64,000 nucleotides of DNA from Bacteroidia bacterium (GTDB lineage Bacteria; Bacteroidota; Bacteroidia; 2-12-FULL-35-15). The stretch spans positions 467,803 through 531,802 of the forward strand of contig JBJMLR010000011.1 in assembly GCA_045805205.1 (NCBI GenBank), given 5' to 3'. The notes under the pieces were generated by a model. The model saw only the letters and a program-made list of their open reading frames with translations. It was not told the DNA's origin and did not search any database. The position numbers were made by a program, and so were the translations under genes. This document shows positions 1,419 through 55,824 of the stretch, piece by piece. Numbering within the stretch: position 1 is the first letter of the stretch; the number at the start of each line of letters is the position of its first letter.

Positions 1419-4400
1419 ATGAGTGAGGAAATTTTGAAAGCTTTAATGCAGCTGTTTGCGATCATCGCAAAACAGAATGACGGAAGTTCAGCCGGACAAA
1501 GGGAATTTATTGACCTTTTTTTACGGGCTCAGCTGAACGCTGCGAAGTGCGAAGAATATTTGAACCTGTATGATCAATTCCTGCATGGAAGCGATCAGGC
1601 AAGTCCGGAAAAAGAATCCGAGCGGAAGCTTACTTCGATGAAAGATTCCGTGAGAACGCTTTCGATCTGTAAAAAGATAAACAAAACCCTTACCCAAAAG
1701 CAAAAGGTCGTTGTACTGATCAGGCTATACGAATTTATTTGTGTCGCGTCTGGTCATTCGGAGCAGGGCTTCCAGATCATTTCGACAGTGTCTGAGGTAT
1801 TCCGGATCGAACCGGGAGACCGAGCGCTTATTGAATATCTTATTTTCGATAAGCACAGCGCGGAAGCGGATCTCGCCGAAAGCATGCTTATTGCGGAGAA
1901 GGAAGATCAGGACCGATCCGGCAAATTTATCCAGGCCGACGGTCTGGACGGTCGTATTTCGATCATTCGTATCGGTGCAGTGGGCCTTTATTTTTTCAAA
2001 TACAACGGCAATTCGGATATTTTCCTCAACGGATTCAGCGCGAGGAACAATATAATTTATTTGCTGCCACAGGGAGCGACATTGCGCTTGCCAAGAGGAG
2101 CGGTCTATTATGCTGATATTGTTTCCCGTTTCATGGACGAGGGGGTTAAGGAGAAATTTCATTTTACTGCCAGCGACGTTTCTTTTCGTTTTAAAACAGG
2201 TGACCCGGCGCTGAGAAACATCTCTATCGAAGAAGAAGGAGGTAAGCTGATCGGGATCATGGGTGGAAGCGGTGCAGGGAAAACAACCTTGCTGAATGTG
2301 CTGTCGGGAATAGAAACTCCTTCCGGTGGGACCGTTCGTGTCAATGGTATGGATCTTCATGCTAACCGGGCGCAGATGGATGGAGCGATAGGATATATTT
2401 CACAGGACGATCTGCTCTTTGAAGATCTTACTGTTTATCAAAATCTTTTTTATAACGCTGAACTATGTCACGGCGATCAGAAAAGCAGGATCATCGTTAA
2501 CAAAACGCTGTCCACGTTGGCAGGACTTGGTCTCCAGGAAGCAAAGGATATTAAAGTAGGCTCGCCGCTTAATAAGATGATCAGCGGCGGACAACGAAAG
2601 CGGCTCAATATTTCTCTGGAGCTGATCCGGGAACCGCCTATTCTTTTTGTGGATGAGCCGACCTCCGGGTTATCATCCAGGGATTCTGAGAATGTAATGG
2701 ACCTGCTGAAGGAATTATCACTCCGGGGGAAACTGATATTTGTTGTGATCCACCAGCCCTCATCCGACATTTATAAAATGTTCGACAAGGTCATCATCCT
2801 CGATAAAGGAGGATACCAGATCTATTATGGTAACCCGATCGAGGCGGTTATGTATTTCAAGGAAATGACAAACCAGCTGAACAGTGATATCGGCGAATGT
2901 GAGTCATGCGGAAATGTGAACCCCGAAACTATTTTTAATATTATCGAATCGAAAGAAGTAGATGAATACGGTAATTCGACCGCAAACAGAAAAATATCAC
3001 CTGAACAATGGTCAGGATACTATCAGAAAAGGCTGCCTGAAAATCATACAGCGAATGTAAAAACGACTGAAAAAAGCAAATCGTCTTTTTCCCGTCCTGC
3101 AAAGTTTCGCCAATTTAAGATCTTTTTAAAGCGCGATCTCGTTTCCAAGATCAGCAATCTGCAATATATCGCTATCAATCTATTGGAAGCTCCTTTGCTG
3201 GCGATGATCCTTGCCGGATTCATACGTTATTACAGCGGGAGCGAATCTGAATACGTTTTCCGCGAAAACGAAAATATTCCCGCTTATATATTTATCAGCG
3301 TGATCGTCATGCTGTTTTTTGGATTAACGGTTAGTGCGGAAGAGATCTTCAAAGATCAAAAGATCCTGAAGCGGGAGCAATTTCTGAATCTCAGCAAATT
3401 CAGTTACCTGTGCTCTAAGATCTTTTTGTTATTCAGCATTTCAGCCATCCAGTCGCTGTTATTTGCACTTGTCGGAAACTGGATAATCGGGATCCACGGA
3501 ATGTTCCTGGATTATTTCCTTGTATTGTTTTCTGTTTCAGCTTTTGCAAACGTGATCGGTCTGAATATTTCCTCGGCGTTTAATTCAGCCGTTACAATTT
3601 ATATTCTTATTCCATTGTTGATCATCCCGCAGATGATCCTCGGAGGAGCGATGATCAGTTATGATAAGATCAACAGATACCTCGGAGGCGGGGAAAAAGT
3701 GCCGGTTCTTGCAGAGTTTATGATCTCCAGATGGGGCTATGAAGCGCTGATGGTGGACCAGTTCGTATATAACAAATATGAAAAGGAATTCTATCCGATC
3801 GATAAAAAGATCAGCGAGGCGAATTACATTCTTGCATATTATATCCCTGAGCTTCGAAAGATCATCTCCGAAAGCAAATCCGCATTGGAGGAAAATAAGG
3901 CTGGCAAGTCATCCGCAGTTTCTGAAAACCTGGAGACACTCAACGCAGAGTTGAAGAAATTTCCGGGAGAATGTTCGGCGGTGGGATTAAATTTATCCGG
4001 AACACTTTTGAAAAATCCTGACTACCTCGTGAAAGCGGGGAAAGCGCTGGATCTATTGAACGATGAGCAAAGCGATGTTTTTAACTATTGGGACCGGAAG
4101 AACGAGGAGCTGCTTAAGAATTTTAACCGTGCAAACGGACAGGAGAAAGTTACCCGCATCAGGGATGATTATTCAAATGATTACCTGAAGGATATATTGT
4201 GCCGGACATTTGCAAAGAAGAAAGTACTTCGTGACAATGGAGTATTGGTGCAAGTCATCGATCCGATATTCAGATCTGTTGACGGGTCTGCCTTTATATC
4301 GGTCCATGAACCGCTTTTTATACCTGAAAAGAAGCTTTTCGGAAAAACGATCGGTGTTCTTGCTTTTAATGTGCTTGTGATCTGGGTATTCTCGCTGGTT

Positions 4401-4782: not shown

Positions 4783-7700
4783 ATGAACACTTTTTTATAT
4801 ATCATTCATAAGTTAACGCAGCAGCGGCGAGCGGGATCGCTTTTCATAAGAATCTTTTTCCTCGCGTTTCTGCTTGTTCAGCACGGAGAATCTAAGGCAC
4901 AGTGTACAGCCGAAATTGGAAATTATTCTCCACTCATCGGATGCGAAATACTTACGGTTCAGTTTCATGATTCCACGTCCGGCCCGGAGCTTTCAAGAAC
5001 CTGGGATTTTGGTGACGGATCAGCTACTTCCAGCTCTTCAGGTCCGCTGCATAATTTCTCGGCGGGATTTCTCGGCGATACGTCATATGTCATAACGCTT
5101 AGTACTGTTTGTATCAGCGGCCCTGCCAGCACCGCTTATGACACAGTGAAAGTGTATAAAAAACCAAAGGTCAATTTTGCTTCGAATAAATTCACTCTTT
5201 GTGCGCTTACGGATTCTGCATGTTTTACCAATCTTTCAACGTCCGGTCCGGGTTACACTTATCTGTGGAACTTCGGGGATTTCACAACGAGCAGCGCGTA
5301 TCAGCCATGTCACATCTATAGCACCGGTGGTGTTTACCCGGTTCAGCTCACCGTCACAAATTCTCACGGCTGCGCCAATTCCGTGACTTATTCAAGTTAT
5401 ATTACGGTGATCCCGGCACCAACCCTTGATTTCAATCTTAGCTCATTTTTGGGTTGCTCGCCAATGGGGGTCAGCTTTTCGAATATTACAGATACAGTCG
5501 CCACGTCGTTCACTTCATGGCAATGGAACTTCGGCGACGGATCTCCGGTTATCAATGCATTTAATCCTCCGTCCCACACATTCCTGCTGCCGGGAACTTA
5601 TTTTATCACGATGAGTGCTACTAATTCACTGGGCTGCTCGAACAGTACAACAAAAGCAATTGTTGTCCGGACCACGCCTACTTCAACGTTCACTGCAATT
5701 TCGCCGGTTTGCGCCGGAAGCAATTCTTTACTGACCTATACGGGAAATGCGGGTGCTGGCGCTTTATATGCCTGGAACTTTGCAGGAGGGGTTGCAAGTC
5801 CGGGCTCGGGTGCCGGACCGCATAACGTATCGTGGAACAGCGCAGGAACAATGAATGTGCAGCTGACCGTTACCGATAGTGGCTGCACATCCAGCTTTTC
5901 GCTGCCGGTAACCGTAAATCCGCTGCCGGTAGTTACGCTGAATGTTTTTCCGAATGATACCATTTGCCAGGGACAAACAGTAACGTTCACAGCGAGTCCG
6001 TCAACTCTGGTGAACTATCAATTTTATGTGAATTCGGTGATGGTGCAGGATTCTTCCAGCAGCTCATTCACTTCGTCGTCACTTTCTGACGGAGATTCAA
6101 TATATGTTACGGGTTCAAATGCTTTCAATTGTGCAAGCTTAGGAAGCAATGCCGTTGTGATGAAAGTAAATCCGCTGCCGTCGGTTTCGCTTAGCAGCAG
6201 CGGTCTTTCGGCTTGCGCCGGTGACAGTCTTGTGTTTACCGCATCGCCTTCCGGCTACGATAGTTATTCTTTTTTCCAGGGATTTTTAGTGCTTCAGAAT
6301 TCAGCATCGTCTGTTTATTCTACTACTGGATGGGTGAACGGCAATTCGATCTACGTTACTGCAACCGAGAATGGCTGCACCGGACCGCCAAGCAATATTC
6401 TGACTCCGCTGGTTACCCAGCCGCTGCCGACTCCCCAGGTAAATTGTGGAACCTCAACCGATTCTACTATCCAGTTTACATGGCTGCCGGTCTCCGGCGC
6501 CAGTGGCTACCTTGTGAGTGTTAACGGCGGACCGTATGTGTCGCCGAGTTCGGGTGTTCTCGGAACAACTCAGTTTGTCGGTGGCCTCACTACAGGCATG
6601 AGCGCAACGATACAGGTGATCGCGCTGGGTCCCGCACCTTGCGGAAACAGCGACACTTCAGCTGTTCACACCTGCTTTGCGATGAACTGTACCGGCATTT
6701 CTTTTTCCATCAATCCATATCAAACCATTTGTAATGGGGATGCTGTCACACTCGATCTTTCGGGCTTTAGCATAGCAAGTCCATTCGCTTCCTGGAATGG
6801 AGGCGCTTCAACTCCTTATAGCGATTTTACTTTTACGCCGCTGTCGGATGTTACCATTCCTGTAGTCGTGAGCAATCCGGCGCAACCGGGATGTCCGTCT
6901 GCAAGCAACTATTTCGTGATCACCGTTAATCCGCTTCCGGCCGTCGGTATTACCGTAAGTCCTGCAGCGGATAGTATTTGTCAGGGGACGCCGGTAACGT
7001 TCACTGCTTCACCGGCAGGCTATACCGACTATTCATTTTATAATGGGGCCACTCTTATGCAAAGCTCAAATAATCCGAATTTTACTGTACCGGATGTTGC
7101 GGGGAACTATTATATAAGTGTGCAGTCGACCTACCTCGGATGCCAGTATTCAACACCGGCGCTTCCCCTGACAATCCTTCCTGCACCTTTGGTAGCGTTG
7201 ACCTCAGCGCCCGGCGGCGGAACTGTTTGTTACGGTGATACCGTTTTATTCACAGCATTTCCTCCCGGTTATACAACGTACTCTTTTTATAACGGGTCCA
7301 CGCTGCTGCAGAGCTCGGCTTCGAATGTGATGAGCTACGGCGGAATGTTCGTTGGAAGCGGTAATAATATTTCCGTGATCGCTGTCAATTCCGATGGCTG
7401 TAACAGCACATCCAGCAACGTGATCAATTTCACTATTACGCCGCCGCCATCTATTTCGCTTGCCTGTTCTGACCTGGATCTCCAGATCTGTGAAGGTGAT
7501 CCGGTAACATTTACCGCTTCTCCTTCGGGAATGCTTTTATATGAATTTTTTAACGGTACAACGTTACTTCAGAGCTCGGCTTCGCCTTCCTTTGTGACAA
7601 GTTCTCTTCTTGCAGGCAATACAATTACGGTAGTCGGCACAAATGCAACGGGTTGCAAAACCATGATGAGCAATGCATTCTCACTGATGGTGAAGCCAAG

Positions 7701-18000: not shown

Positions 18001-18054
18001 GTAGATTATTAGTCACAGCAAAACCGGAGAGTTGGATTCATTAGGTCTAAGAAT

Positions 18055-18157
18055 GTGGACCTTGTCCACCGAAGCCCGAACGGATGACTCTTGAAAATAA
18101 AAAGCCCTTCTTCGCTCTGTTCACCTTTCAGGTGTTCAGAGCTTCGAAGGGCGAAGG
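18055..18157 (+). repeat. Structured repeat copy A: gtggaccttgtccac hairpin plus gcccttc...gaagggc stem, ending gggcgaagg
   Basis: Seen directly. It is a tandem partner of copy B at 18191-18291. Confidence 0.65.
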
Positions 18158-18190
18158 AAAATTCAGTGACAAAATTTCGAACTCAAAAAA

Positions 18191-18291
18191 GTGGACCTTG
18201 TCCACCGAAGCCTGAACGAATGACTGTTAAAGAGAAAGCCCTCCGTCGCATTTCTAACCTTGTCAGGTTCGAAAAGCTATGGAGGGCGAAG
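18191..18291 (+). repeat. Structured repeat copy B: the same hairpin plus gccctcc...ggagggc stem with a compensatory t>c / a>g change, ending gggcgaagg
   Basis: Seen directly. Confidence 0.65.
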
Positions 18292-18308
18292 GTGGAGAAT
18301 ACCGGATT
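18292..18308 (-). repeat. 17-nt exact duplicate of the tRNA-Ala 3' end (gtggagaataccggatt), an att-like footprint
   Basis: Identical to 18464-18480, which is the 3' acceptor/T-arm part of tRNA-Ala, and in the same orientation. Confidence 0.7.
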
Positions 18309-18448: not shown

Positions 18449-18464
18449 ATACTCTGAGTTAACG

Positions 18465-18538
18465 TGGAGAATACCGGATTCGAACCGGTCGCCTCTTCAC
18501 TGCCAGCGAAGCGCTCTAGCCAAATGAGCTAATTCCCC
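18465..18538 (-). tRNA. tRNA-Ala (anticodon GGC)
   Basis: Manual cloverleaf of GGGGAAT-TA-GCTC-ATTTGGCTA-GAGC-G-CTTCG-CTGGCAG-TGAAG-AGGCG-ACCGG-TTCGAAT-CCGGT-ATTCTCC-A. The G3:U70 Ala identity pair is present, T-loop is TTCGAAT, 74 nt, and CCA is not encoded. Confidence 0.9.
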
Positions 18539-23950: not shown

Positions 23951-24883
23951 ATGGCTAAAAAAGCGCAAAAAGGTAAGGCAGCGAAAAAACCGGCAGCAAA
24001 GAAAACTGTAAAAAAGGCAGCACCTAAAAAGGCATCTAAGCCTGCTAAAAAAGCCGCACCTAAAAAAGCAGCAAAGAAAGCAGCTCCTAAAAAGGCTTCA
24101 AAACCAACGAAGAAAGTGGTAAAGAAGGCTGCAAAACCTGTAAAAAAAGCAGTAGCGAAAAAGCCGTTAAAAAAAGCCGCTCCTAAAAAAGCCGCTAAAA
24201 AGGTGGTTGCAAAAAAGGCAGCTAAGCCGGTAAAAAAGCCGGTTGCTAAAAAGGCGATAAAGCCAGCTCCGGCTGTGAAGCCAGCTGCTAAAAAGCCTGA
24301 AGCGAAGGCTCCTGCAAAACCGATCGCAGCCGTTGCAAAACCGGCGCCGGTTGCAAAAAAGGCCGAGCCAGTCGCAAAAAAGAAGAAATACGATTCTCTG
24401 ATGGATGACGAGTATAGCTCGGATGAAGCGCCGATGGTAGTGGAATACAAAACACCATCGATCCGCAAGCCAATGGGCCCTGCTCCTAAACCGCATATCA
24501 ATACCGATACACGCACCCGTTACTCGGATTCTGAGTTAAAGGAATTCAAAGAGCTTATCCTGAAGAAGCTTGCAGAAGCGCAGAAAGATTATGAGCTGCT
24601 GAAAAGTACTTTATCGCACAAGGATGACCACGGTACCGATGATACTTCTCCTACTTTCAAATTGCTGGAAGATGGATCCGATGTATTGTCAAAAGAAGAA
24701 ACAGCTCATCTTGCAAGCCGCCAGGAGAAGTTCATTCAGAACCTCCAGAATGCACTGATCCGTATTGAGAATAAAACTTATGGCATCTGTCGTGCAACCG
24801 GTAAGCTGATCTCCAAGGAACGTTTAAGAAGTGTTCCCCACGCAACACTCGCTATCGAAGCGAAGCTTGAGCAGAATACATAG
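23951..24883 (+). CDS. DksA/TraR-family regulator with a histone-H1-like Lys/Ala/Pro-rich N-terminal extension
   Basis: The C-terminal about 130 aa (...ENKTYGICRATGKLISKERLRSVPHATLAIEAKLEQN) resembles DksA/TraR proteins. The N-terminal about 150 aa consist of KKAAPKK/AKKPV repeats. It sits between ileS and lspA. Confidence 0.7.
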   Translation: MAKKAQKGKAAKKPAAKKTVKKAAPKKASKPAKKAAPKKAAKKAAPKKASKPTKKVVKKAAKPVKKAVAKKPLKKAAPKKAAKKVVAKKAAKPVKKPVAKKAIKPAPAVKPAAKKPEAKAPAKPIAAVAKPAPVAKKAEPVAKKKKYDSLMDDEYSSDEAPMVVEYKTPSIRKPMGPAPKPHINTDTRTRYSDSELKEFKELILKKLAEAQKDYELLKSTLSHKDDHGTDDTSPTFKLLEDGSDVLSKEETAHLASRQEKFIQNLQNALIRIENKTYGICRATGKLISKERLRSVPHATLAIEAKLEQNT

Positions 24884-25059: not shown

Positions 25060-25761
25060 GTGAAGAAGCCCTTACTCATTGTTTTCCTCGTTCTGCTGAT
25101 CGATCAGTTCATCAAGATCTACATCAAAACGCACTTTTTTCTTGGAGAAGAGATCCACATGGCCGGCGATTGGGCAATTATCCATTTTACCGAGAATAAC
25201 GGAATGGCCTACGGAATGGAGTTCGGTGGTAATTTCGGAAAGCTCTTTTTGAGTGTCTTCCGCATCGTTGCCGTGGGTGGGATCGGTTATTACCTGTGGA
25301 CGCTTACCAGAAAGAAGGAAGACGGACTTTATATTTTCTGTATTGCATTGATCTTCGCCGGCGCGATCGGAAATATCCTTGACAGTGCGTTCTATGGAAT
25401 GATGTTCAGCGACAGCAATTATGAGGTGGCCCGCTTTATGCCTGAAGAAGGCGGATACGCTTCTTTCCTGCATGGGAAGGTCGTCGATATGTTCTATTTT
25501 CCGGTGATCACCGGTCATTACCCTTCCTGGTTTCCGGCTTTATCCAATACCAGTTTACCCGACTGGTTCCCGCGGTCCGGAGAGGATTTTGTTTTCTTCC
25601 GTCCCGTTTTCAACTTCGCCGATTTTTCCATCAGCGTTGGTGTCGCCATGATCATTCTTTACCAGCGTCGCTTTTTTGGAAAAAAGAAGACAACCGCTCA
25701 GGTTGAAGAAACGGAGAACAGTGAACCAACTCCGCCCCCTGCGGATACGGTCACCGGGTAG
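25060..25761 (+). CDS. lspA: Lipoprotein signal peptidase (signal peptidase II)
   Basis: Multiple TM helices and the conserved FNFADFSISVG segment, at the canonical position after ileS and the DksA-like gene. Confidence 0.9.
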   Translation: MKKPLLIVFLVLLIDQFIKIYIKTHFFLGEEIHMAGDWAIIHFTENNGMAYGMEFGGNFGKLFLSVFRIVAVGGIGYYLWTLTRKKEDGLYIFCIALIFAGAIGNILDSAFYGMMFSDSNYEVARFMPEEGGYASFLHGKVVDMFYFPVITGHYPSWFPALSNTSLPDWFPRSGEDFVFFRPVFNFADFSISVGVAMIILYQRRFFGKKKTTAQVEETENSEPTPPPADTVTG

Positions 25762-25770
25762 ATCCTCATC

Positions 25771-25808
25771 CTGCATCGCTGTCACCCGATGGAGCGAAGT
25801 CGAAATGC
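25771..25808 (+). repeat. Dispersed hairpin-repeat family copy (gtcaccc...gagcgaagtcgaa)
   Basis: Seen directly; see findings. Confidence 0.6.
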
Positions 25809-25834
25809 ACGATAATTTTCCACAAAGAAAGCTG

Positions 25835-25903
25835 GTTAGAACGTCACCCTGCATCGCCGTCGGTAAGCCTTTGGCGGCTAATGGACCGGAGTCGAGACAT
25901 TGT
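25835..25903 (+). repeat. Dispersed repeat copy (ggttagaacgtcaccctgcatcgcc...ggagtcgag)
   Basis: Seen directly. Confidence 0.6.
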
Positions 25904-25928
25904 GATAATCATTGCAAAAAGAAAACCC

Positions 25929-25964
25929 GGTTAGAACGTCACCCTGAGCGAAGTCGAAGGGTAG
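25929..25964 (+). repeat. Dispersed repeat copy (ggttagaacgtcaccctgagcgaagtcgaagggtag) abutting the GIY-YIG stop codon
   Basis: Seen directly. Confidence 0.65.
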
Positions 25965-25965
25965 A

Positions 25966-26285
25966 TCATTTGAGGTCGTGATGTGTCTCGTTTTTGCAGA
26001 TTGATAACTCTTTAATTCGTGACCAATTCGCTTCGATCAAAGCCTGCTTTTTTGCTCTGCTCCATTCTTTTACCTTCTTTTCAAATGCAATTGCTGAGGT
26101 GGGATCAGGAAACGTTTCATAATACATCAGCTCCACCGGCCTCCGTTCGTAAGTGTACGATCTTTATGGTATCCGCAATGATGTTGTGTCAGCCGGACTT
26201 CAAGATTACTCGTAACGCCCGTGTAATATGATTTATCGGAACAAAGTAAAATATAAACAAACATGTTTGAAATTTTTCTTTTCAT
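25966..26285 (-). pseudogene. GIY-YIG nuclease family protein (YhbQ/UPF0213-like, about 105 aa) with an apparent -1 frameshift
   Basis: Minus-strand frame 1: MKRKISNMFVYILLCSDKSYYTGVTSNLEVRLTQHHCGYHKDRTLTNGGRWS*, which carries the GIY-YIG hallmark. The C-terminal half continues in another frame (RPVELMYYETFPDPTSAIAFEKKVKEWSRAKKQALIEANW...DLK*). The shift is near 26135-26145. It is absent from the ORF track because both pieces are under 60 aa. Confidence 0.6.
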
Positions 26286-26291
26286 TTTTTT

Positions 26292-26355
26292 AACCGGCCG
26301 CCCTTCGACTCCGCTCCTCCGCTCGCTGAAGCTCAGCGAAGGCGATGCAGGGTGA
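26292..26355 (-). repeat. Dispersed repeat copy in inverse orientation (aaccggccgcccttcgactccgc...cagggtgac) directly upstream of the GIY-YIG start
   Basis: Reverse complement reads gtcaccctgcatcgcc...ggagtcgaagggcggccggtt, then aaaaaa, then ATG. Confidence 0.65.
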
Positions 26356-26406
26356 CTTATAATTGTAATGTGAGTTGTAAAAACAACCTCTTAATTTCTT
26401 AGTGTG

Positions 26407-26435
26407 CTGAGTGCCTTAGTGGTGAAATAAGTCAT
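26407..26435 (+). repeat. 29-bp cttagtg...cttagtggtgaa element in the asd 3' UTR
   Basis: Near-identical to 33347-33375 (3 mismatches). A related inverted copy is at 33187-33225. Confidence 0.55.
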
Positions 26436-26440
26436 GAAGA

Positions 26441-27427
26441 TTAAATCATCTTCTTTCCCATCAAATACTCCGCAATCTGGATCGCATTGGTAGCGGCACC
26501 TTTTCGCAAATTATCCGATACAACCCACATGTTCAGCGTTTTTTCCTGTGTCTCATCACGGCGAAGTCTTCCCACAAACACCTCATCCTTATCGTGTGCA
26601 TCCATTGGCATCGGATATTTCAGGTTCTTCACATCATCTACCAAAATAACACCCGGCGCGTGATGCAGCAATGAACGAACTTCATTCATATCGAATTCCT
26701 TTTCAAACTCAACGTTCATGCTTTCGCTGTGTCCGCCCATCACCGGAATGCGAACGGTTGTTGCAGTTACCCGGATATTCTTATCGAGGATCTTCTTCGT
26801 TTCATTCACCATTTTCATCTCCTCTTTTGTATAATCGTTTTCGGTAAAAACATCGATATGAGGAATCACATTCAGATCGATCGGATAAGCATAAGCCATG
26901 TTCCCCTTCACACCTTTTCGTTCATTCATCAGCTGCTCAACCGCTTTCACCCCTGTTCCGGTTACCGATTGGTAAGTAGAAACAACAACACGCAGTACAT
27001 TGTATTTTTTGTGAAGCGGTGCAAGTGCCACAACCATTTGTATAGTGGAACAGTTTGGATTTGCGATGATCTTATCTGCTGCTGTAAGTTCATCTGCATT
27101 GATCTCCGGTACAACCAGCTTTTTCGCGGGGTCCATTCTCCAGGCAGAAGAGTTATCGATCACCGTGATCCCCGCTTCCGCGAATTTCGGTGCCCATTCC
27201 AGCGAAGTGCTTCCGCCCGCCGAGAACAATGCCACATTCGGTTTCATGTCGATAGCCGTCTGCATCCCCACCACCTTGAACTTTTTACCCTTATAGGAAA
27301 CTTCCTTCCCGATCGATTTTTCAGATGCGACAGGAATTAACTCCGTTACGGGGAAATTACGTTCTTCCAGTACCTGGATCATTTTGGTGCCTACCAGCCC
27401 GGTGGCTCCGACTACTGCTACTTTCAT
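26441..27427 (-). CDS. asd: Aspartate-semialdehyde dehydrogenase
   Basis: MKVAVVGATGLVG... NAD-binding N-terminus; 328 aa overall; the active-site region (..SGAG..C..) has the Asd pattern. Confidence 0.9.
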   Translation of the reverse strand: MKVAVVGATGLVGTKMIQVLEERNFPVTELIPVASEKSIGKEVSYKGKKFKVVGMQTAIDMKPNVALFSAGGSTSLEWAPKFAEAGITVIDNSSAWRMDPAKKLVVPEINADELTAADKIIANPNCSTIQMVVALAPLHKKYNVLRVVVSTYQSVTGTGVKAVEQLMNERKGVKGNMAYAYPIDLNVIPHIDVFTENDYTKEEMKMVNETKKILDKNIRVTATTVRIPVMGGHSESMNVEFEKEFDMNEVRSLLHHAPGVILVDDVKNLKYPMPMDAHDKDEVFVGRLRRDETQEKTLNMWVVSDNLRKGAATNAIQIAEYLMGKKMI

Positions 27428-41485: not shown

Positions 41486-41530
41486 GTCCGACCCGAACTC
41501 CCTTCGACTTCTTTCAGGACAAGCTTCCCG
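41483..41530 (-). repeat. 11-nt duplicate of the tRNA-Gln 3' end (gttgtccgacc) fused to a dispersed-repeat copy (cccttcgacttc...)
   Basis: gttgtccgacc at 41483-41493 equals 41583-41593. It is followed by cgaac and the reverse-oriented gagtcgaaggg motif. Confidence 0.55.
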
Positions 41531-51188: not shown

Positions 51189-51322
51189 ACACTTAGTCAC
51201 CTAATCACTTAGTCACCCAGTCACCTAATCACTTAGTCACCCAGTCACATAATCACTTAGTCACCCAGTCACCTAATCACTTAGTCACCCAGTCACCTAA
51301 CCACCCAGTCACCTAATCACTC
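51189..51322 (+). repeat. Tandem array of about 5.5 copies of a 24-bp unit (cacttagtcacccagtcacctaat) ending 3 nt before the start codon of the next gene
   Basis: Seen directly. Confidence 0.85.
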
Positions 51323-51325
51323 CAA

Positions 51326-52480
51326 ATGAACTACCCGAACCTGATCAACAGCAAGCTCCCCAATGCAGGGACCACCATTTTTACGGTTATGAGCAAGCTC
51401 GCGGCGGATCATAATGCGATCAATCTTTCACAGGGCTTCCCTGATTTCAGCTGCAGCGAGGAAATGATCTCGCTTGTAAATAAATACATGAAGACCGGAC
51501 ATAACCAGTATGCTCCTATGGCCGGAATATTTGCGCTTCGTGAAATGCTGGCTCAGAAAACCGAAGACCTTTACGGCGCTAAATACGATCCCGAAACAGA
51601 AATTACTATTACAGCCGGCGCTACACAGGCCATTTATACAGCTATCTCGGCGATCATCCGGGAAGATGATGAAGTGATCATCTTTGAACCGGCATATGAT
51701 TGTTACCAGCCGGCAATTGAAATGAACGGCGGCAAAACGATCTATATGCAGCTCCAGTCACCTGCTTATTCCATCGACTGGGAGAAGGTGAAAAAGATGA
51801 TCAATCACCGTACAAAAATGATCATTATCAATACCCCGCATAATCCAACCGGGAGCGTAATGTCCGCCGGCGATATGAGCAGCCTGGAGAAGCTGGTGAA
51901 AGGAACGGATATTGTGATCATCAGTGATGAAGTATATGAGCACATTATTTTTGACGGACAAAAGCATCAGAGTGTTGCCCGTTTTCCGGGTCTCGCGGAA
52001 CGAAGTTTTATTATTTCCTCCTTTGGGAAAACCTATCATACTACCGGCTGGAAGCTGGGCTATTGCGTGGCACCGAAAAACCTGATGGCGGAATTCCGGA
52101 AAGTACATCAGTTCCTGGTTTTTTCCTGCAATACACCCATTCAGATGGCCCTTTCGGAATTCCTGAAGCAAAAGGAAAATTACCTTGAGCTGGGAAATTT
52201 TTATCAGAAGAAACGCGATCATTTCATCAGCCTGATCAGGAATTCGAAATTTGAGTTTGTCAAATCGCCCGGGACCTATTTTCAGCTGCTGAGTTATAAA
52301 AATGTCAGTAAAGAAAAGGATACCGATTATGCGGTCCGCCTGACAAAAGAATCCGGACTGGCGTCTGTGCCCATTTCCGTATTCTATCATGAGCAGGAAG
52401 ACAATCACATGCTGCGCTTCTGCTTCGCGAAGAAGGATGAAACACTTGAAAAAGCAGCGGAAATATTAAATAAGATCTGA
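51326..52480 (+). CDS. ybdL: PLP-dependent aminotransferase, YbdL-like methionine/glutamine transaminase
   Basis: SKLPNAGTTIFTVMSKLAADHNAINLSQGFPDF matches the YbdL N-terminus; class I aminotransferase length. Confidence 0.8.
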   Translation: MNYPNLINSKLPNAGTTIFTVMSKLAADHNAINLSQGFPDFSCSEEMISLVNKYMKTGHNQYAPMAGIFALREMLAQKTEDLYGAKYDPETEITITAGATQAIYTAISAIIREDDEVIIFEPAYDCYQPAIEMNGGKTIYMQLQSPAYSIDWEKVKKMINHRTKMIIINTPHNPTGSVMSAGDMSSLEKLVKGTDIVIISDEVYEHIIFDGQKHQSVARFPGLAERSFIISSFGKTYHTTGWKLGYCVAPKNLMAEFRKVHQFLVFSCNTPIQMALSEFLKQKENYLELGNFYQKKRDHFISLIRNSKFEFVKSPGTYFQLLSYKNVSKEKDTDYAVRLTKESGLASVPISVFYHEQEDNHMLRFCFAKKDETLEKAAEILNKI

Positions 52481-52642: not shown

Positions 52643-52678
52643 GGCGTCACCCCGCGCGGAGTCAAAGGGTGGCCGGTC
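52643..52678 (+). repeat. Dispersed repeat copy (ggcgtcaccccgcgcggagtcaaagggtggccggtc)
   Basis: Seen directly. Confidence 0.6.
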
Positions 52679-52694
52679 TTGAACTAATTCAACA

Positions 52695-53480
52695 ATGCAA
52701 AACCTCACCATCACCCTCATCCAGACCGATCTTCACTGGGAAGATAAAGTAAAGAACCTCGAAATGTTCGCGGCAAAGATCGCTTCCATCGCCGGTCATA
52801 CCGATCTCATTGTGCTTCCTGAAATGTTCACCACGGGGTTCAGCATGCGCCCCGGGCTGTTTGCAGAAAAAATGGACGGCGCAACAGTCAGCTGGATGCG
52901 TTATCGCGCGCGAGAGAAGAGCTGCGTCATCACCGGGAGCTTCATTTGTGAAGAGAACGGGAATTATTTTAATCGCCTTGTCTGGATGCGCGCCGATGGC
53001 TCATATGAGACCTATGATAAACGCCATCTTTTCAGAATGGGAGAGGAAGATAAACATTATGGCGCGGGACAAAAGCGGCTGATCGTTGAGCTGAACGGCT
53101 GGAAAGTTTGTCCGCTGGTTTGTTACGACCTTCGTTTCCCGGTATGGAGCCGGAATCAAAAGCAAGATCCATATGACCTGCTCATATACATAGCGAACTG
53201 GCCGGAGCGTCGTGCGCATCCATGGAAATCATTGCTTGTGGCCAGAGCGATCGAAAACCAATGTTTTGTGGCGGGTTTGAACCGGATCGGAAACGACGGC
53301 AATTCAATTTATCACGCCGGAGATTCCGCCGTTCTTAATTTCAAAGGCGAATCCATCAGCGCAATAGAAACCGGAAAGGAATGTGCAGATACGTATATAC
53401 TGAAGTATGATGAATTGATGGAATTCAGAAAAATATTTCCGGTAATGCTGGACGCAGATGATTTTGACGTCAAACTCTAG
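52695..53480 (+). CDS. yafV: Carbon-nitrogen hydrolase (nitrilase superfamily), YafV-like omega-amidase
   Basis: E-K-C triad context (VLPEMF, ...RKIHL/KRHLF, CYDLRFP); 261 aa. Adjacent to the ybdL-like gene. Confidence 0.8.
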   Translation: MQNLTITLIQTDLHWEDKVKNLEMFAAKIASIAGHTDLIVLPEMFTTGFSMRPGLFAEKMDGATVSWMRYRAREKSCVITGSFICEENGNYFNRLVWMRADGSYETYDKRHLFRMGEEDKHYGAGQKRLIVELNGWKVCPLVCYDLRFPVWSRNQKQDPYDLLIYIANWPERRAHPWKSLLVARAIENQCFVAGLNRIGNDGNSIYHAGDSAVLNFKGESISAIETGKECADTYILKYDELMEFRKIFPVMLDADDFDVKL

Positions 53481-53534: not shown

Positions 53535-55268
53535 CTAGTCTGCCACTTTCCACTCCAGCTCCGCGTCCCAGTTTGAGCGAATGTTGATCGTCTCTGCATC
53601 AAAAACAACTTTTTCCGGCTGGATCTTCTGTAAATAATTTCCGCTGTCCCACTTCCCGTTATTGTTTCCGTCGTAAATGATCTTTAAGCGGTATTTTCCC
53701 GGAGGCAGATAATCATATTCAACCGCACCCGGTGCCCTTTCAATGCTTTCCCTGATCACTTTGCCGCTTTCATTCACGAGCTGTATGATATGTCTGAAAT
53801 CATCAGTGAGATTTGGCAGCGACACTTTTACCGTTCCGTAGTATTTTTCTTCGCGTGTTTTAAAATTGACCTTGATCGAATCATTTGTCAACCCGAAGAA
53901 ATCTTCAAATGTCCCCGGAGGAATAAAAAAATGATAATTTGTATTCTCTTTCCAATCGGTAAAAAGCATCGCGGTAGGCGCTTTTACATATTCGCCGGGA
54001 TGCTCCGGATCTTCAGCAAGCATGGTTGTATCGATCGTACATAATTTCAACTCATCACCCGGCACGAACCAGGAAACAAATTCAGGTTCACCTGCCGCTG
54101 TTTTTACCGGTACAGTATCTGCTTTTAGTCCGGCGTGGATCCATTTATCCAGCCGAACAGGATGGTTGAACCGCAAGCCAAGCGTGCTTCCCAGGTCAAA
54201 GCTTTGGTTGCCGTCCGGGCTGCTGATCGCTTTTAATTTAAATGGATTCTTTTTTGATTTCTTCGCTTCATCGAGCGTAACGAGTTTGATACGCAGCGTA
54301 TCCATTACTTTAGTGCCGTTTCTCAGTTCCAGGATCAGCGAATCTTTCTGGAAATTTTTAAACCAGTAAATGACGCTGTCTTTGTCTTTAGAATACTCAA
54401 CGTACTCCTGAACCCCTTTGTCGGTATTGTTCAGCGGATTCAAATGCAAGCTGTCCGATCCCTGGTTCAGATAAAGTGAAACCTTCCCATACGTATCATG
54501 CACATATTTTTTCAGGAATGTTTTTTTCGCCGGCTCCCGGAACAGGTCTACCATGATCTCTTTTTTCTCTGTAACATCTACCGGCGCATTTAAGAAGCCG
54601 ATCATCTCGCTTTCACCGTCATATTTATAATTCGAGTTCACATCTTTCACTGCAACCAGTCTGTACCTTCCGGCACGGAGATTTCTCAGGTTAAAAGAGC
54701 CGTCACTCAGTGTTTTTGCAAAATAATCGGGTTGTCCGGTGAACACAGTGCTATCGCTCATATCGCTGTACAGCATTACCACAACACCTTCCATGCTGCT
54801 GAGATCAAAGGCGTTTTCAACTCGTCCTTTCAGGCTCAGTGAATCGATGAAATTTCCCGTAGAAAAAATATAGCGGAAATCTTTCAGCGGGTTATTTTCA
54901 TTCAGATCCTGGATCGCATTCCCGAAGTTGATACTGTATGTGGTGTTCGGTTTTAGCTCTTCGCTTTTATCCAGTGAAATGCTGAGTGTTTTGTTCTTTA
55001 CGGAGATCTCGGGTGATTTTTTTAGCGGAGGAGAGATGATCAGCTGTGTATTCAGATCTTTCAGCTGGATGAATTCATTAAAGTCGATCAGGATGTTCTT
55101 TGAGTTGAAATTAAGCTGCGCACTGTCAGGATTGTACTTCAGCGGCTTCGGCGCGAACGTGTCTTTGGGACCGCCGCCCGGTGCTACGACTTGCGCGCAC
55201 GCTGTGAGCAGGAGCGTCAGAATCGGCAAACAGGTATATGTGACAGTGAGTGTTCTAATGGTGCGCAT
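53535..55268 (-). CDS. Hypothetical lipoprotein with Ig-like / beta-sandwich domains
   Basis: Lipobox LLLTAC after the signal peptide. 577 aa, beta-rich, no catalytic motif. Confidence 0.45.
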   Translation of the reverse strand: MRTIRTLTVTYTCLPILTLLLTACAQVVAPGGGPKDTFAPKPLKYNPDSAQLNFNSKNILIDFNEFIQLKDLNTQLIISPPLKKSPEISVKNKTLSISLDKSEELKPNTTYSINFGNAIQDLNENNPLKDFRYIFSTGNFIDSLSLKGRVENAFDLSSMEGVVVMLYSDMSDSTVFTGQPDYFAKTLSDGSFNLRNLRAGRYRLVAVKDVNSNYKYDGESEMIGFLNAPVDVTEKKEIMVDLFREPAKKTFLKKYVHDTYGKVSLYLNQGSDSLHLNPLNNTDKGVQEYVEYSKDKDSVIYWFKNFQKDSLILELRNGTKVMDTLRIKLVTLDEAKKSKKNPFKLKAISSPDGNQSFDLGSTLGLRFNHPVRLDKWIHAGLKADTVPVKTAAGEPEFVSWFVPGDELKLCTIDTTMLAEDPEHPGEYVKAPTAMLFTDWKENTNYHFFIPPGTFEDFFGLTNDSIKVNFKTREEKYYGTVKVSLPNLTDDFRHIIQLVNESGKVIRESIERAPGAVEYDYLPPGKYRLKIIYDGNNNGKWDSGNYLQKIQPEKVVFDAETINIRSNWDAELEWKVAD

Positions 55269-55293: not shown

Positions 55294-55330
55294 GAACGTC
55301 ACCCGGCGGAGTCAGGGGCGGCCGGTTGAC
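55294..55330 (+). repeat. Dispersed repeat copy (gaacgtcacccggcggagtcaggggcggccggttgac)
   Basis: Seen directly. Confidence 0.6.
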
Positions 55331-55338
55331 GGACAGAA

Positions 55339-55824
55339 TTAAGTATATATTTTTTCAATAATTTGCATCAGCTGCTCCAGGTATATCTTGTCGGTTTCAT
55401 CAAATGCCCCCAGCTGATCGCTGTCTGCATCCAGCACAAGCATCACTTCACCGCGTTCATCAAACGCAGGAAGTACAATCTCTGAGCGTGATGCACTGCT
55501 GCAGGCGATGTGCCCCGGAAACTGATCCACGTCTTCAACAATAACGGTTTTTTTCTCTTTCCAGGCTGTTCCGCAAACCCCTTTCCCCAGGGCAATCCGG
55601 GTACAGGCAACGGGTCCCTGGAAAGGTCCGAGCACTAACTGCCCTTCTTTTACAAAATAAACACCCACCCAAAAAAAGTCCATCCCGAATTTCAATGCCG
55701 ACATGATATTGGAAAGGTTTGCGATCCGGTCGTTTTCGCCTGCAATCAATGCCCTGATCTGCGGGAGAAGAGACTCATACTTTTCTTTTTTACTGGTTCC
55801 GGTTACGGAAAGCGATTCAGCCAT
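55339..55824 (-). CDS. GAF-domain free methionine-(R)-sulfoxide reductase-like protein
   Basis: 161 aa with ...GPVACTRIALGKGVCGTAW...HIACSSASRSEIV, the fRMsr (YebR-like) Cys pattern. Confidence 0.75.
   Translation of the reverse strand: MAESLSVTGTSKKEKYESLLPQIRALIAGENDRIANLSNIMSALKFGMDFFWVGVYFVKEGQLVLGPFQGPVACTRIALGKGVCGTAWKEKKTVIVEDVDQFPGHIACSSASRSEIVLPAFDERGEVMLVLDADSDQLGAFDETDKIYLEQLMQIIEKIYT

Follow-up and report, generated by a model that had tools for sequence, protein, structure and literature searches.

The 64-kb stretch of DNA studied here (the window), which comes from one assembly of a Bacteroidia bacterium and is the source of all window counts given below, carries between lspA and asd the remains of a small gene for a GIY-YIG nuclease, set among copies of a hairpin repeat. 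By analogy with the Ssn proteins, GIY-YIG nucleases that bind the hairpin repeats flanking their genes (SRM) in single-stranded DNA (ssDNA) (Chenal et al. 2025, Nat Commun, PMC11893778), we propose that this locus is probably a pseudogenised gene for an Ssn-type GIY-YIG endonuclease, surrounded by its cognate hairpin repeats, which are of a variant type. The proposal draws on the gene itself, on the arrangement of the repeat copies around it and on the recurrence of the same arrangement in other genomes.

A GIY-YIG gene inactivated by a frameshift

The 679 bp that separate lspA (25060-25761, plus strand) from asd (26441-27427, minus strand) hold no long intact open reading frame (ORF), as the initial annotation of this DNA had stated. 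Judged by its ORFs, its match to PF01541 and its homologues, an Ssn-like single-domain GIY-YIG gene, now a pseudogene, occupies 25966-26285 on the minus strand, where its two halves reside in overlapping ORFs, 26127-26285 and 25966-26136. The first in-frame ATG is at 26285, an alternative start is at 26264 and the stop codon TGA occupies 25968-25966. Inserting one base at the lesion yields the protein MFVYILLCSDKSYYTGVTSNLEVRLTQHHCGYHKDSYTYERRPVELMYYETFPDPTSAIAFEKKVKEWSRAKKQALIEANWSRIKELSICKNETHHDLK, to which a start at 26285 would add MKRKISN; the gene encodes about 100-106 amino acids, in keeping with the minus-strand protein of about 105 amino acids that had been annotated, and the repaired translation that we analysed has 99. 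The repaired product matches PF01541 with an E value of 2.9e-18 over residues 2-73, and a search of Pfam and NCBIfam returned nothing besides this domain and no NCBIfam family.

Three-frame translation combined with single-base repair places the frameshift at ~26158-26161 (minus strand), one base being absent in CATAAAGA^TCGTACACT. The frame, judged by homology, switches at AAAGA^TCGTAC, where the gene has one base fewer than its homologues, and a single inserted base restores GYHKDSYTYERRPVEL, upon which the spacing of the residues agrees with that of the homologues. The frameshift had been noticed before but was assigned to 26135-26145, which is merely the overlap of the two ORFs and not the lesion.

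Intact homologues are 95-118 amino acids long and show 56-64% identity to the repaired protein. An alignment of 23 sequences of the subfamily has 16 invariant and 10 near-invariant positions, including Tyr4 of the GIY motif, Tyr14 of the YIG motif, Arg24, His28 and Glu62. As the repaired protein preserves every one of these columns, the frameshift is the sole visible lesion, and as the remaining long ORFs of the window are intact, a real mutation is likelier than a systematic assembly error. The GIY-YIG gene of this organism is inactivated at this locus by a one-base frameshift, and the repeats downstream of it are decaying.

Repeat copies around the gene and elsewhere in the window

For the search of repeat copies, a covariance model (R1) was built from copies of other genomes and the whole window was scanned with filters off. 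Upstream of the gene and in gene sense lies a copy of the long form, running from 26356 to 26292 on the minus strand, which is recognized by its sequence, by inverted-repeat pairs and by the match of R1 to its core GAGCGGAGTCGA at 26305-26316. It consists of GTCACCCT, a 31-nt insert that holds its own CGCTGA/TCAGCG palindrome, GAGCGGAGTCGAAGGG and CGGCCGGTT, and only 6 nt (six A's) intervene between its end and the ATG at 26285, the very layout that had been annotated. On the other side of the gene a canonical short copy, inverted relative to the gene, is found at 25936-25963 on the plus strand (R1 39.4 bits, E 1e-7). Here the sequence GTCACCCTGAGCGAAGTCGAAGGG at 25938-25961 lies 4 nt past the stop codon, so that the inverted repeat annotated directly after the TGA is real, and it follows the pattern aCGTCA CCCT GAGCGAAGTCGA AGGG Ta. 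A strict structural scan of the window has 25936-25963 as its sole match.

Two more copies had been annotated further downstream and both exist, each in degenerate form. The second downstream copy, a degenerate long form at 25843-25897 (plus strand), is recognized by an inverted-repeat pair, by direct repeats and by alignment of the units, and the outermost inverted-repeat pair of the locus joins 25843-25868 with 26331-26356 (26 nt, 88% identity, ~514 bp end to end). The third, decayed copy at ~25764-25806 (plus strand; R1 core match of 12.3 bits, unit alignment) starts 3 nt past the lspA stop codon and has kept the core GAGCGAAGTCGA at 25792-25803. All three downstream units can be aligned as direct repeats of ~80-95 nt.

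Each downstream unit (25756-26000, minus strand) also opens with a T(C/T)TG(C/T)(A/G)A segment that weakly resembles the last codons of the gene, ATCTGCAAAAAC. Given this resemblance, the three units might have arisen from 3' ends of the gene that stayed behind when it was partially duplicated or replaced more than once.

Away from the gene, at least six further solo copies had been claimed, whereas the covariance scan gives two clear solo copies, besides which there is one decayed fragment near 41495-41530. The first, gCGTCACCCCGCGCGGAGTCAAAGGGTGGCCGGTC at 52644-52680 on the plus strand (R1 E 0.05 for 52644-52671), is located 15 bp upstream of an ORF starting at 52695. The second, aaCGTCACCCGGCGGAGTCAGGGGCGGCCGGTTGAC at 55296-55330 on the plus strand, matches the cross-genome model only weakly (R1 E 6 for 55296-55320); it resides inside the 70-bp gap of the minus-strand ORFs 53535-55268 and 55339-55824, has the tail GGAGTCRRRGGYGGCCGGT in common with the copy upstream of the gene and has a predicted hairpin free energy of -10.6 kcal/mol as ssDNA. 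Both distant solo copies share with the upstream copy the 3' extension GGAGTCRRRGG-YGGCCGGT, and four of the five window copies have the head CGTCA.

Association of gene and repeat across genomes

We compared 83 homologous loci, 80 of them from species-representative genomes and three obtained by homologue look-up, and searched 1.33 Mb with a structural scan that demands GTCA, a 4-nt stem, GA..core..T[C/A]GA and the complementary stem; an earlier loose scan on TCGAAG-like words was too permissive and was set aside. That genes of this kind are accompanied by the motif holds well beyond the window: at 75 of the 83 loci of other genomes at least one copy lies within 300 bp of the gene. The scan counted 263 copies near genes and 103 farther away, compared to 11 in shuffled sequence. 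Short words of the core behave alike, as GTCGAAG in gene sense reaches 3.6/kb in the 150 bp upstream of the gene versus 0.05/kb past 2 kb, and CTTCGAC reaches 2.7/kb in the first 150 bp downstream versus 0.04/kb. The association of gene and repeat is beyond chance.

The copies are also oriented, forward copies being favoured upstream of the gene and reverse copies downstream. Both sides of the gene carry copies at 47 loci, and at 35 loci a forward copy upstream is combined with a reverse copy downstream. From the end of the closest forward copy on the upstream side to the ATG the median distance is 70 nt, distances of 9-30 nt being frequent, and the nearest downstream reverse copy starts at a median of ~20 nt past the stop codon, sometimes overlapping the end of the ORF. 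About 55 solo copies were found more than 600 bp from any GIY-YIG ORF in the sequence scanned around these related loci, and head-to-head doublets are common among them.

The same repeat accompanies this subfamily outside Bacteroidota as well, in Myxococcales, in a metagenome-assembled genome of Pseudomonadales, in Vulcanimicrobiota, in Parasphingorhabdus and in Sphingomonas, indicating that gene and repeat travel or co-evolve together. The homologues of Cupriavidus and Legionella that we inspected have no recognisable repeats.

At one locus of the comparison set (L001, ~2740-3000 and 3340-3620), direct copies of a ~170-bp block flank the gene in addition to inverted ones, and each block comprises one forward and two reverse copies of the repeat.

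A short covarying stem around a conserved core

The consensus of the repeat is [T/C]GTCA-N4-GAGC-N2-4-GTCGA-N4', and a long form with GAGTG-[hairpin]-GTATCGA also occurs. Among 222 instances collected without regard to pairing, 173 have four of four Watson-Crick stem pairs and 37 have three, while four of four would be expected by chance in ~0.4%. All four Watson-Crick pair types are found at each of the first two stem positions, and mainly two at positions 3 and 4; the alignment from which pair types were counted was pre-selected for pairing, which makes its percentage of paired positions circular but not its diversity of pair types. The repeat thus is a 4-bp stem that covaries around a conserved GAGC..GTCGA core. 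In all, 4-5 Watson-Crick pairs enclose a core of 11-12 nt, and extending the stem would take G-A pairs as well as a bulged T. In 308 copies collected by GTCA-anchored scans, in which GTCA is fixed by construction and only the base preceding it is independent, that base is T in 215 and C in 70; in 146 of the copies a T that follows the stem is available for pairing with the A of GTCA.

A covarying stem around so conserved a core, which as RNA would read CUGAGC..GUCGAAG, also speaks for a structured RNA transcribed together with its neighbours, for instance a small ribozyme, a processing site or a cis-regulatory element, near which the GIY-YIG gene would merely tend to lie. The gene-upstream copies occupy what would be a 5' untranslated region, given their median distance of 70 nt from the ATG, and the solo copy at 52644 stands 15 bp before an ORF start. 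We nonetheless consider a structured RNA very unlikely. Rfam searches of the whole window at gathering thresholds, and of 25600-26500 at E values up to 10, returned two tRNAs and chance-level matches only, none of them to the repeat. Mismatches in the stem are without a clear strand-specific wobble bias (G-T and T-G together 12, A-C and C-A together 6), and the presence of both orientations on both sides of the gene, together with head-to-head doublets, suits a DNA element better. Moreover, SsnA, the characterised homologue, binds ssDNA and not RNA.

A hammerhead-like ribozyme, suggested by the string CUGAGC..GUCGAAG, was ruled out by inspection, as the GA after N7 and the GAAA element are both missing and Rfam lends no support.

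Agreement and disagreement with the Ssn system

SsnA of N. meningitidis is a 94-amino-acid single-domain GIY-YIG protein of the CDD family cd10448, which binds the NTS repeat CGTCATTCCCGCGMAVGCGGGAATCYRG as ssDNA only and in one orientation only, and cuts a few nt 5' of it (PMC11893778). The enzyme is inactive on double-stranded DNA and RNA, and mutation of Y6, Y17 or E64 abolishes cutting. Homologues of other genera cut their own repeats, SRM were found at 71% of the homologue loci and on both sides of the gene at 42%, and in Neisseria the Ssn system lowers transformation by NTS-bearing DNA (PMC11893778). In light of this work the view that such GIY-YIG genes have no assigned role, held in the initial annotation, is out of date. 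The accompanying suggestion of a nuclease that acts on the repeats is the best-supported reading of the locus, such action having been demonstrated experimentally for the homologous Ssn family.

The window locus resembles this system in several ways. The repaired protein is a lone GIY-YIG domain of ~100 amino acids with no auxiliary DNA-binding domain, and its Y4, Y14 and E62, when compared by residue number, match Y6, Y17 and E64 of SsnA with an offset of 2-3. Inverted hairpin repeats flank the gene 5' and 3', as in NTS-ssnA-NTS; beside the stem there is an oriented unpaired 5' tag, (C/T)GTCA, and the head of NTS is CGTCA; copies of the repeat occur in other intergenic DNA too, and the pairing of gene and repeat extends over several phyla. 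The differences lie mainly in the repeat, which here has a 4-5-bp covarying stem and a GAGC-N2-4-GTCGA core, sometimes with an extra hairpin inserted, whereas NTS-type repeats are perfect palindromes of 7-9 bp with a loop of 3-5 nt. In addition, the subfamily studied here has a C-terminal tail, W..L..L..C.N.(T/S)H, and the window copy is a pseudogene.

By analogy with SsnA we propose that the repeat, when exposed in ssDNA, would fold into a hairpin with an unpaired 5' tag (C/T)GTCA, which an intact nuclease of this subfamily would bind in one orientation only, cutting the single strand a few nt 5' and leaving duplex DNA and RNA untouched. Inverted copies flank the gene itself, and others are scattered over intergenic DNA as singletons or head-to-head doublets. 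From the published work (PMC11893778) we infer for this subfamily both ssDNA-specific binding and cleavage and a role in restricting or shaping how incoming or exposed ssDNA recombines. Any spreading of the repeats by the nuclease is speculative.

Four points weigh against the proposal of an Ssn-type gene with cognate repeats. The first is that the published SRM pattern, coded as HGTCWYN(0-2)YYVSBRHN(0-5)WNVSBRGN(0-2)RNCYNB, matches nowhere in the window, nor up to 300 bp from the gene at any of the 83 loci; the repeat described here is therefore not an SRM as currently defined. The second is that UPF0213 proteins (BH0048, E 3.8e-11; B. subtilis YazA) come about as close to the window protein as does a homologue with SRM, encoded on a Sphingobium plasmid, so that sequence similarity alone leaves the subfamily unsettled. 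The third is that, folded as ssDNA, the short hairpin does not stand out in stability (-2.7 kcal/mol, z ~0); folding energies give support neither way, and the evidence for a hairpin rests on covariation. The fourth is that the gene is broken, and activity in this organism would need another copy beyond the window.

The Sphingobium locus served as a positive control, in which our script detected both flanking SRMs, CGTCACCCCGGGCTTGACCCGGGGTCCCG, the forward one 34 nt upstream of the ORF and the reverse one just past the stop codon. The protein between them and that of the window share 38% identity (E 3e-14), a similarity which, given the SRM flanks of the former, links the two types. A protein search with this SRM-flanked sequence as query returned Sphingomonadaceae only and no named Neisseria SsnA. 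Going by these comparisons, the window locus is best filed as a putative variant of the Ssn/SRM kind, rather than as a demonstrated member of the Ssn clade.

Possible mobility of the gene and its repeats

The locus can also be read as a mini-transposon, autonomous or recently so. The hairpin repeats would then be its terminal inverted repeats, the GIY-YIG protein the transposase working on them, and the solo copies MITE- or REPIN-like elements, themselves non-autonomous and mobilised by that protein, by analogy with REP/RAYT. The Ssn authors, who note the insertion sequence-like layout of NTS-ssnA-NTS and the parallel with REP/RAYT, raise the same hypothesis of mobility (PMC11893778). At the window locus the layout does resemble that of terminal inverted repeats, given the outer inverted repeat of 26 nt at 88%, and the head-to-head doublets common among solo copies would fit as well. 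Furthermore, the closest relatives retrieved, whose Asd is 90-91% identical to that of the window organism, lack the whole unit between asd and lspA; a DUF218 gene takes its place there, in the order asd-DUF218-lspA, and no GIY-YIG gene is present. In one such relative, repeats of the CGTCATTGCGAGGAACGAAGCAATC type follow asd, and the 3' end of lspA bears a canonical copy.

In Epilithonimonas mollis (L015) at least two intergenic regions contain repeat doublets (6927-7005 and 990-1070), whereas the corresponding orthologous regions of two sister genomes that are syntenic with it (L008 and L010) have none. These doublets are ~80 bp long, head-to-head and REPIN-like in look, with similar spacers of ~33 nt (ctaatactaa..). 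Clean insertion boundaries of the doublets were not found in the comparison of L015 with L008 and L010, the intergenic regions being too diverged, which counts against a mini-transposon.

Also against it is the position of the gene, which is orthologous across species in six independent groups, syntenic on both flanks, among them five Flavobacterium species, three Chryseobacterium/Epilithonimonas-type genomes and an Elizabethkingia/Epilithonimonas pair; this fits vertical inheritance and not frequent transposition. The 64 kb of the window contain a single GIY-YIG ORF, and no target-site duplication is obvious at the outer repeat ends (ATTATAA versus GTTCTAA, compared by eye only). GIY-YIG enzymes are hydrolytic nucleases, for which we know of no strand-transfer chemistry, and this too argues against a transposase. 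On balance we find the mini-transposon unlikely. For the selfish mini-transposon with MITE-like solo copies that the initial annotation had put forward, the outcome is divided: the layout and the empty asd-lspA locus of the relatives agree with it, whereas the synteny in six groups and the lack of an evident target-site duplication do not. The evidence for mobility is mixed, and transposon-like movement, lacking direct support, is a hypothesis.

A free-standing homing endonuclease gene, inserted into a pre-existing cluster of repeats that serve as its homing site, would likewise account for a gene that is present here and absent at the same locus in relatives. The GIY-YIG fold is one that homing endonucleases share, and the gene does lie within clusters of the repeat. 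Such enzymes combine the nuclease with a DNA-binding domain and are intronic or free-standing in phage, whereas the window gene is chromosomal and intergenic, between lspA and asd, and its product has no DNA-binding extension, nothing being matched outside the Pfam domain at residues 2-73 of 99. Its best matches of solved structure, 1zg2 and 1ywl, place it in the minimal Slx1-like group and not in the UvrC/homing-endonuclease supercluster, and the position of the gene is syntenic across species. We hold a homing endonuclease to be extremely improbable, and retain the proposal of an Ssn-type nuclease gene among its cognate repeats.

In the relative L090, downstream of asd (~3490-3600), there is an inverted pair CCTC/CGTC-ATTGCGAGGAACGAAGCAATC with no GIY-YIG gene nearby. 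With an ATTGC/GCAAT stem enclosing a GAG..CGA core, it seems to stand midway between palindromes of the NTS type and the repeat of the window.

Other repeats and a neighbouring ORF

Several sequences elsewhere in the window were noted on the way. A tandem array at 51195-51320, directly upstream of an ORF starting at 51326, has 5.2 copies of the 24-nt unit AGTCACCTAATCACTTAGTCACCC with 93% matches; it contains GTCACC words and yet is not the hairpin repeat. Downstream of a tRNA gene (18465-18538, minus strand) there are two copies of a ~135-bp unit (18049-18101 and 18185-18237; also 18128-18157 and 18263-18292), each with a GTCATYCGTTCRGGCTTCGGTGGACAAGGTCCAC hairpin in minus-strand sense, which constitute a repeat family distinct from the one described above. 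A 20-nt copy of the 3' end of this tRNA gene, 95% identical (18289-18308 versus 18461-18480), is found 172 bp downstream of the tRNA and could mark the site of an old integration event targeted to the tRNA. Finally, a 310-amino-acid ORF at 23951-24883 (plus strand) has a long Lys/Ala/Pro-rich, histone H1-like N-terminal half, within which tandem repeats occur at 24045-24264, and a C-terminal part; its counterpart in the relative L090 has a weak match to the DksA/TraR zinc finger.

Comparison with known systems

The general principle, hairpin repeats on either side of the gene for a tiny GIY-YIG nuclease, was published in 2025, and this locus thus does not represent a new kind of system. What is added is a large, mainly Bacteroidota subfamily with a different repeat architecture, which the published SRM pattern misses entirely, and the published figure of 71% of Ssn homologues with cognate repeats is probably too low. 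The 4-bp stem, which varies between genomes around a fixed core, is a candidate source of new ssDNA-cutting specificities.

Literature searches by repeat sequence strings and early keyword searches returned nothing relevant. The UPF0213 or prokaryotic Slx1-like proteins (YhbQ, YazA, BH0048 = PDB 1zg2, EF2693 = PDB 1ywl) resemble the window protein in their minimal GIY-YIG domain and similar length, and also in sequence, with an E value of 3.8e-11 to 1zg2 and 39% identity to YazA. To our knowledge, flanking hairpin repeats have not been reported for the UPF0213 group.

REP/REPIN-RAYT systems are alike in having a nuclease gene between inverted, tagged hairpin repeats, in their head-to-head doublets and in a gene that is often vertically inherited at a fixed locus. 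The enzyme there is a Y1 HuH transposase of the IS200/IS605 type and here a hydrolytic GIY-YIG nuclease, the tag is GTAG there and (T/C)GTCA here, and enzyme-driven mobilisation of the repeats is only hypothetical for the GIY-YIG system.

Closer to the repeat itself are the CGTC/TGTC-tagged REPs that Di Nocera et al. 2013 (BMC Genomics, PMC3733652) described in five phyla, including Bacteroidetes, and reported to lack a dedicated transposase. They share with the repeat studied here the terminal CGTC/TGTC tag, followed by an A and then the hairpin, as well as the predominance of head-to-head dimers. They differ in their stems of 8-9 bp starting with A-T, loops of 4-5 nt and a CCA tail, compared to the 4-5-bp stem and 11-12-nt core found here, and no association with a GIY-YIG gene was noted for them (PMC3733652). 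It is conceivable, if rather doubtful, that the mainly Bacteroidota subfamily and its GTCA-N4-GAGC..GTCGA-N4' hairpins form a REPIN-RAYT-like replicating system, in which a hydrolytic GIY-YIG ssDNA nuclease replaces the Y1 transposase and would maintain and spread the head-to-head doublets. If so, the 'missing enzyme' of the CGTC/TGTC-tagged REPs would be supplied. Our data tie the repeats of the window and its homologous loci to these older REPs, which had no known partner enzyme.

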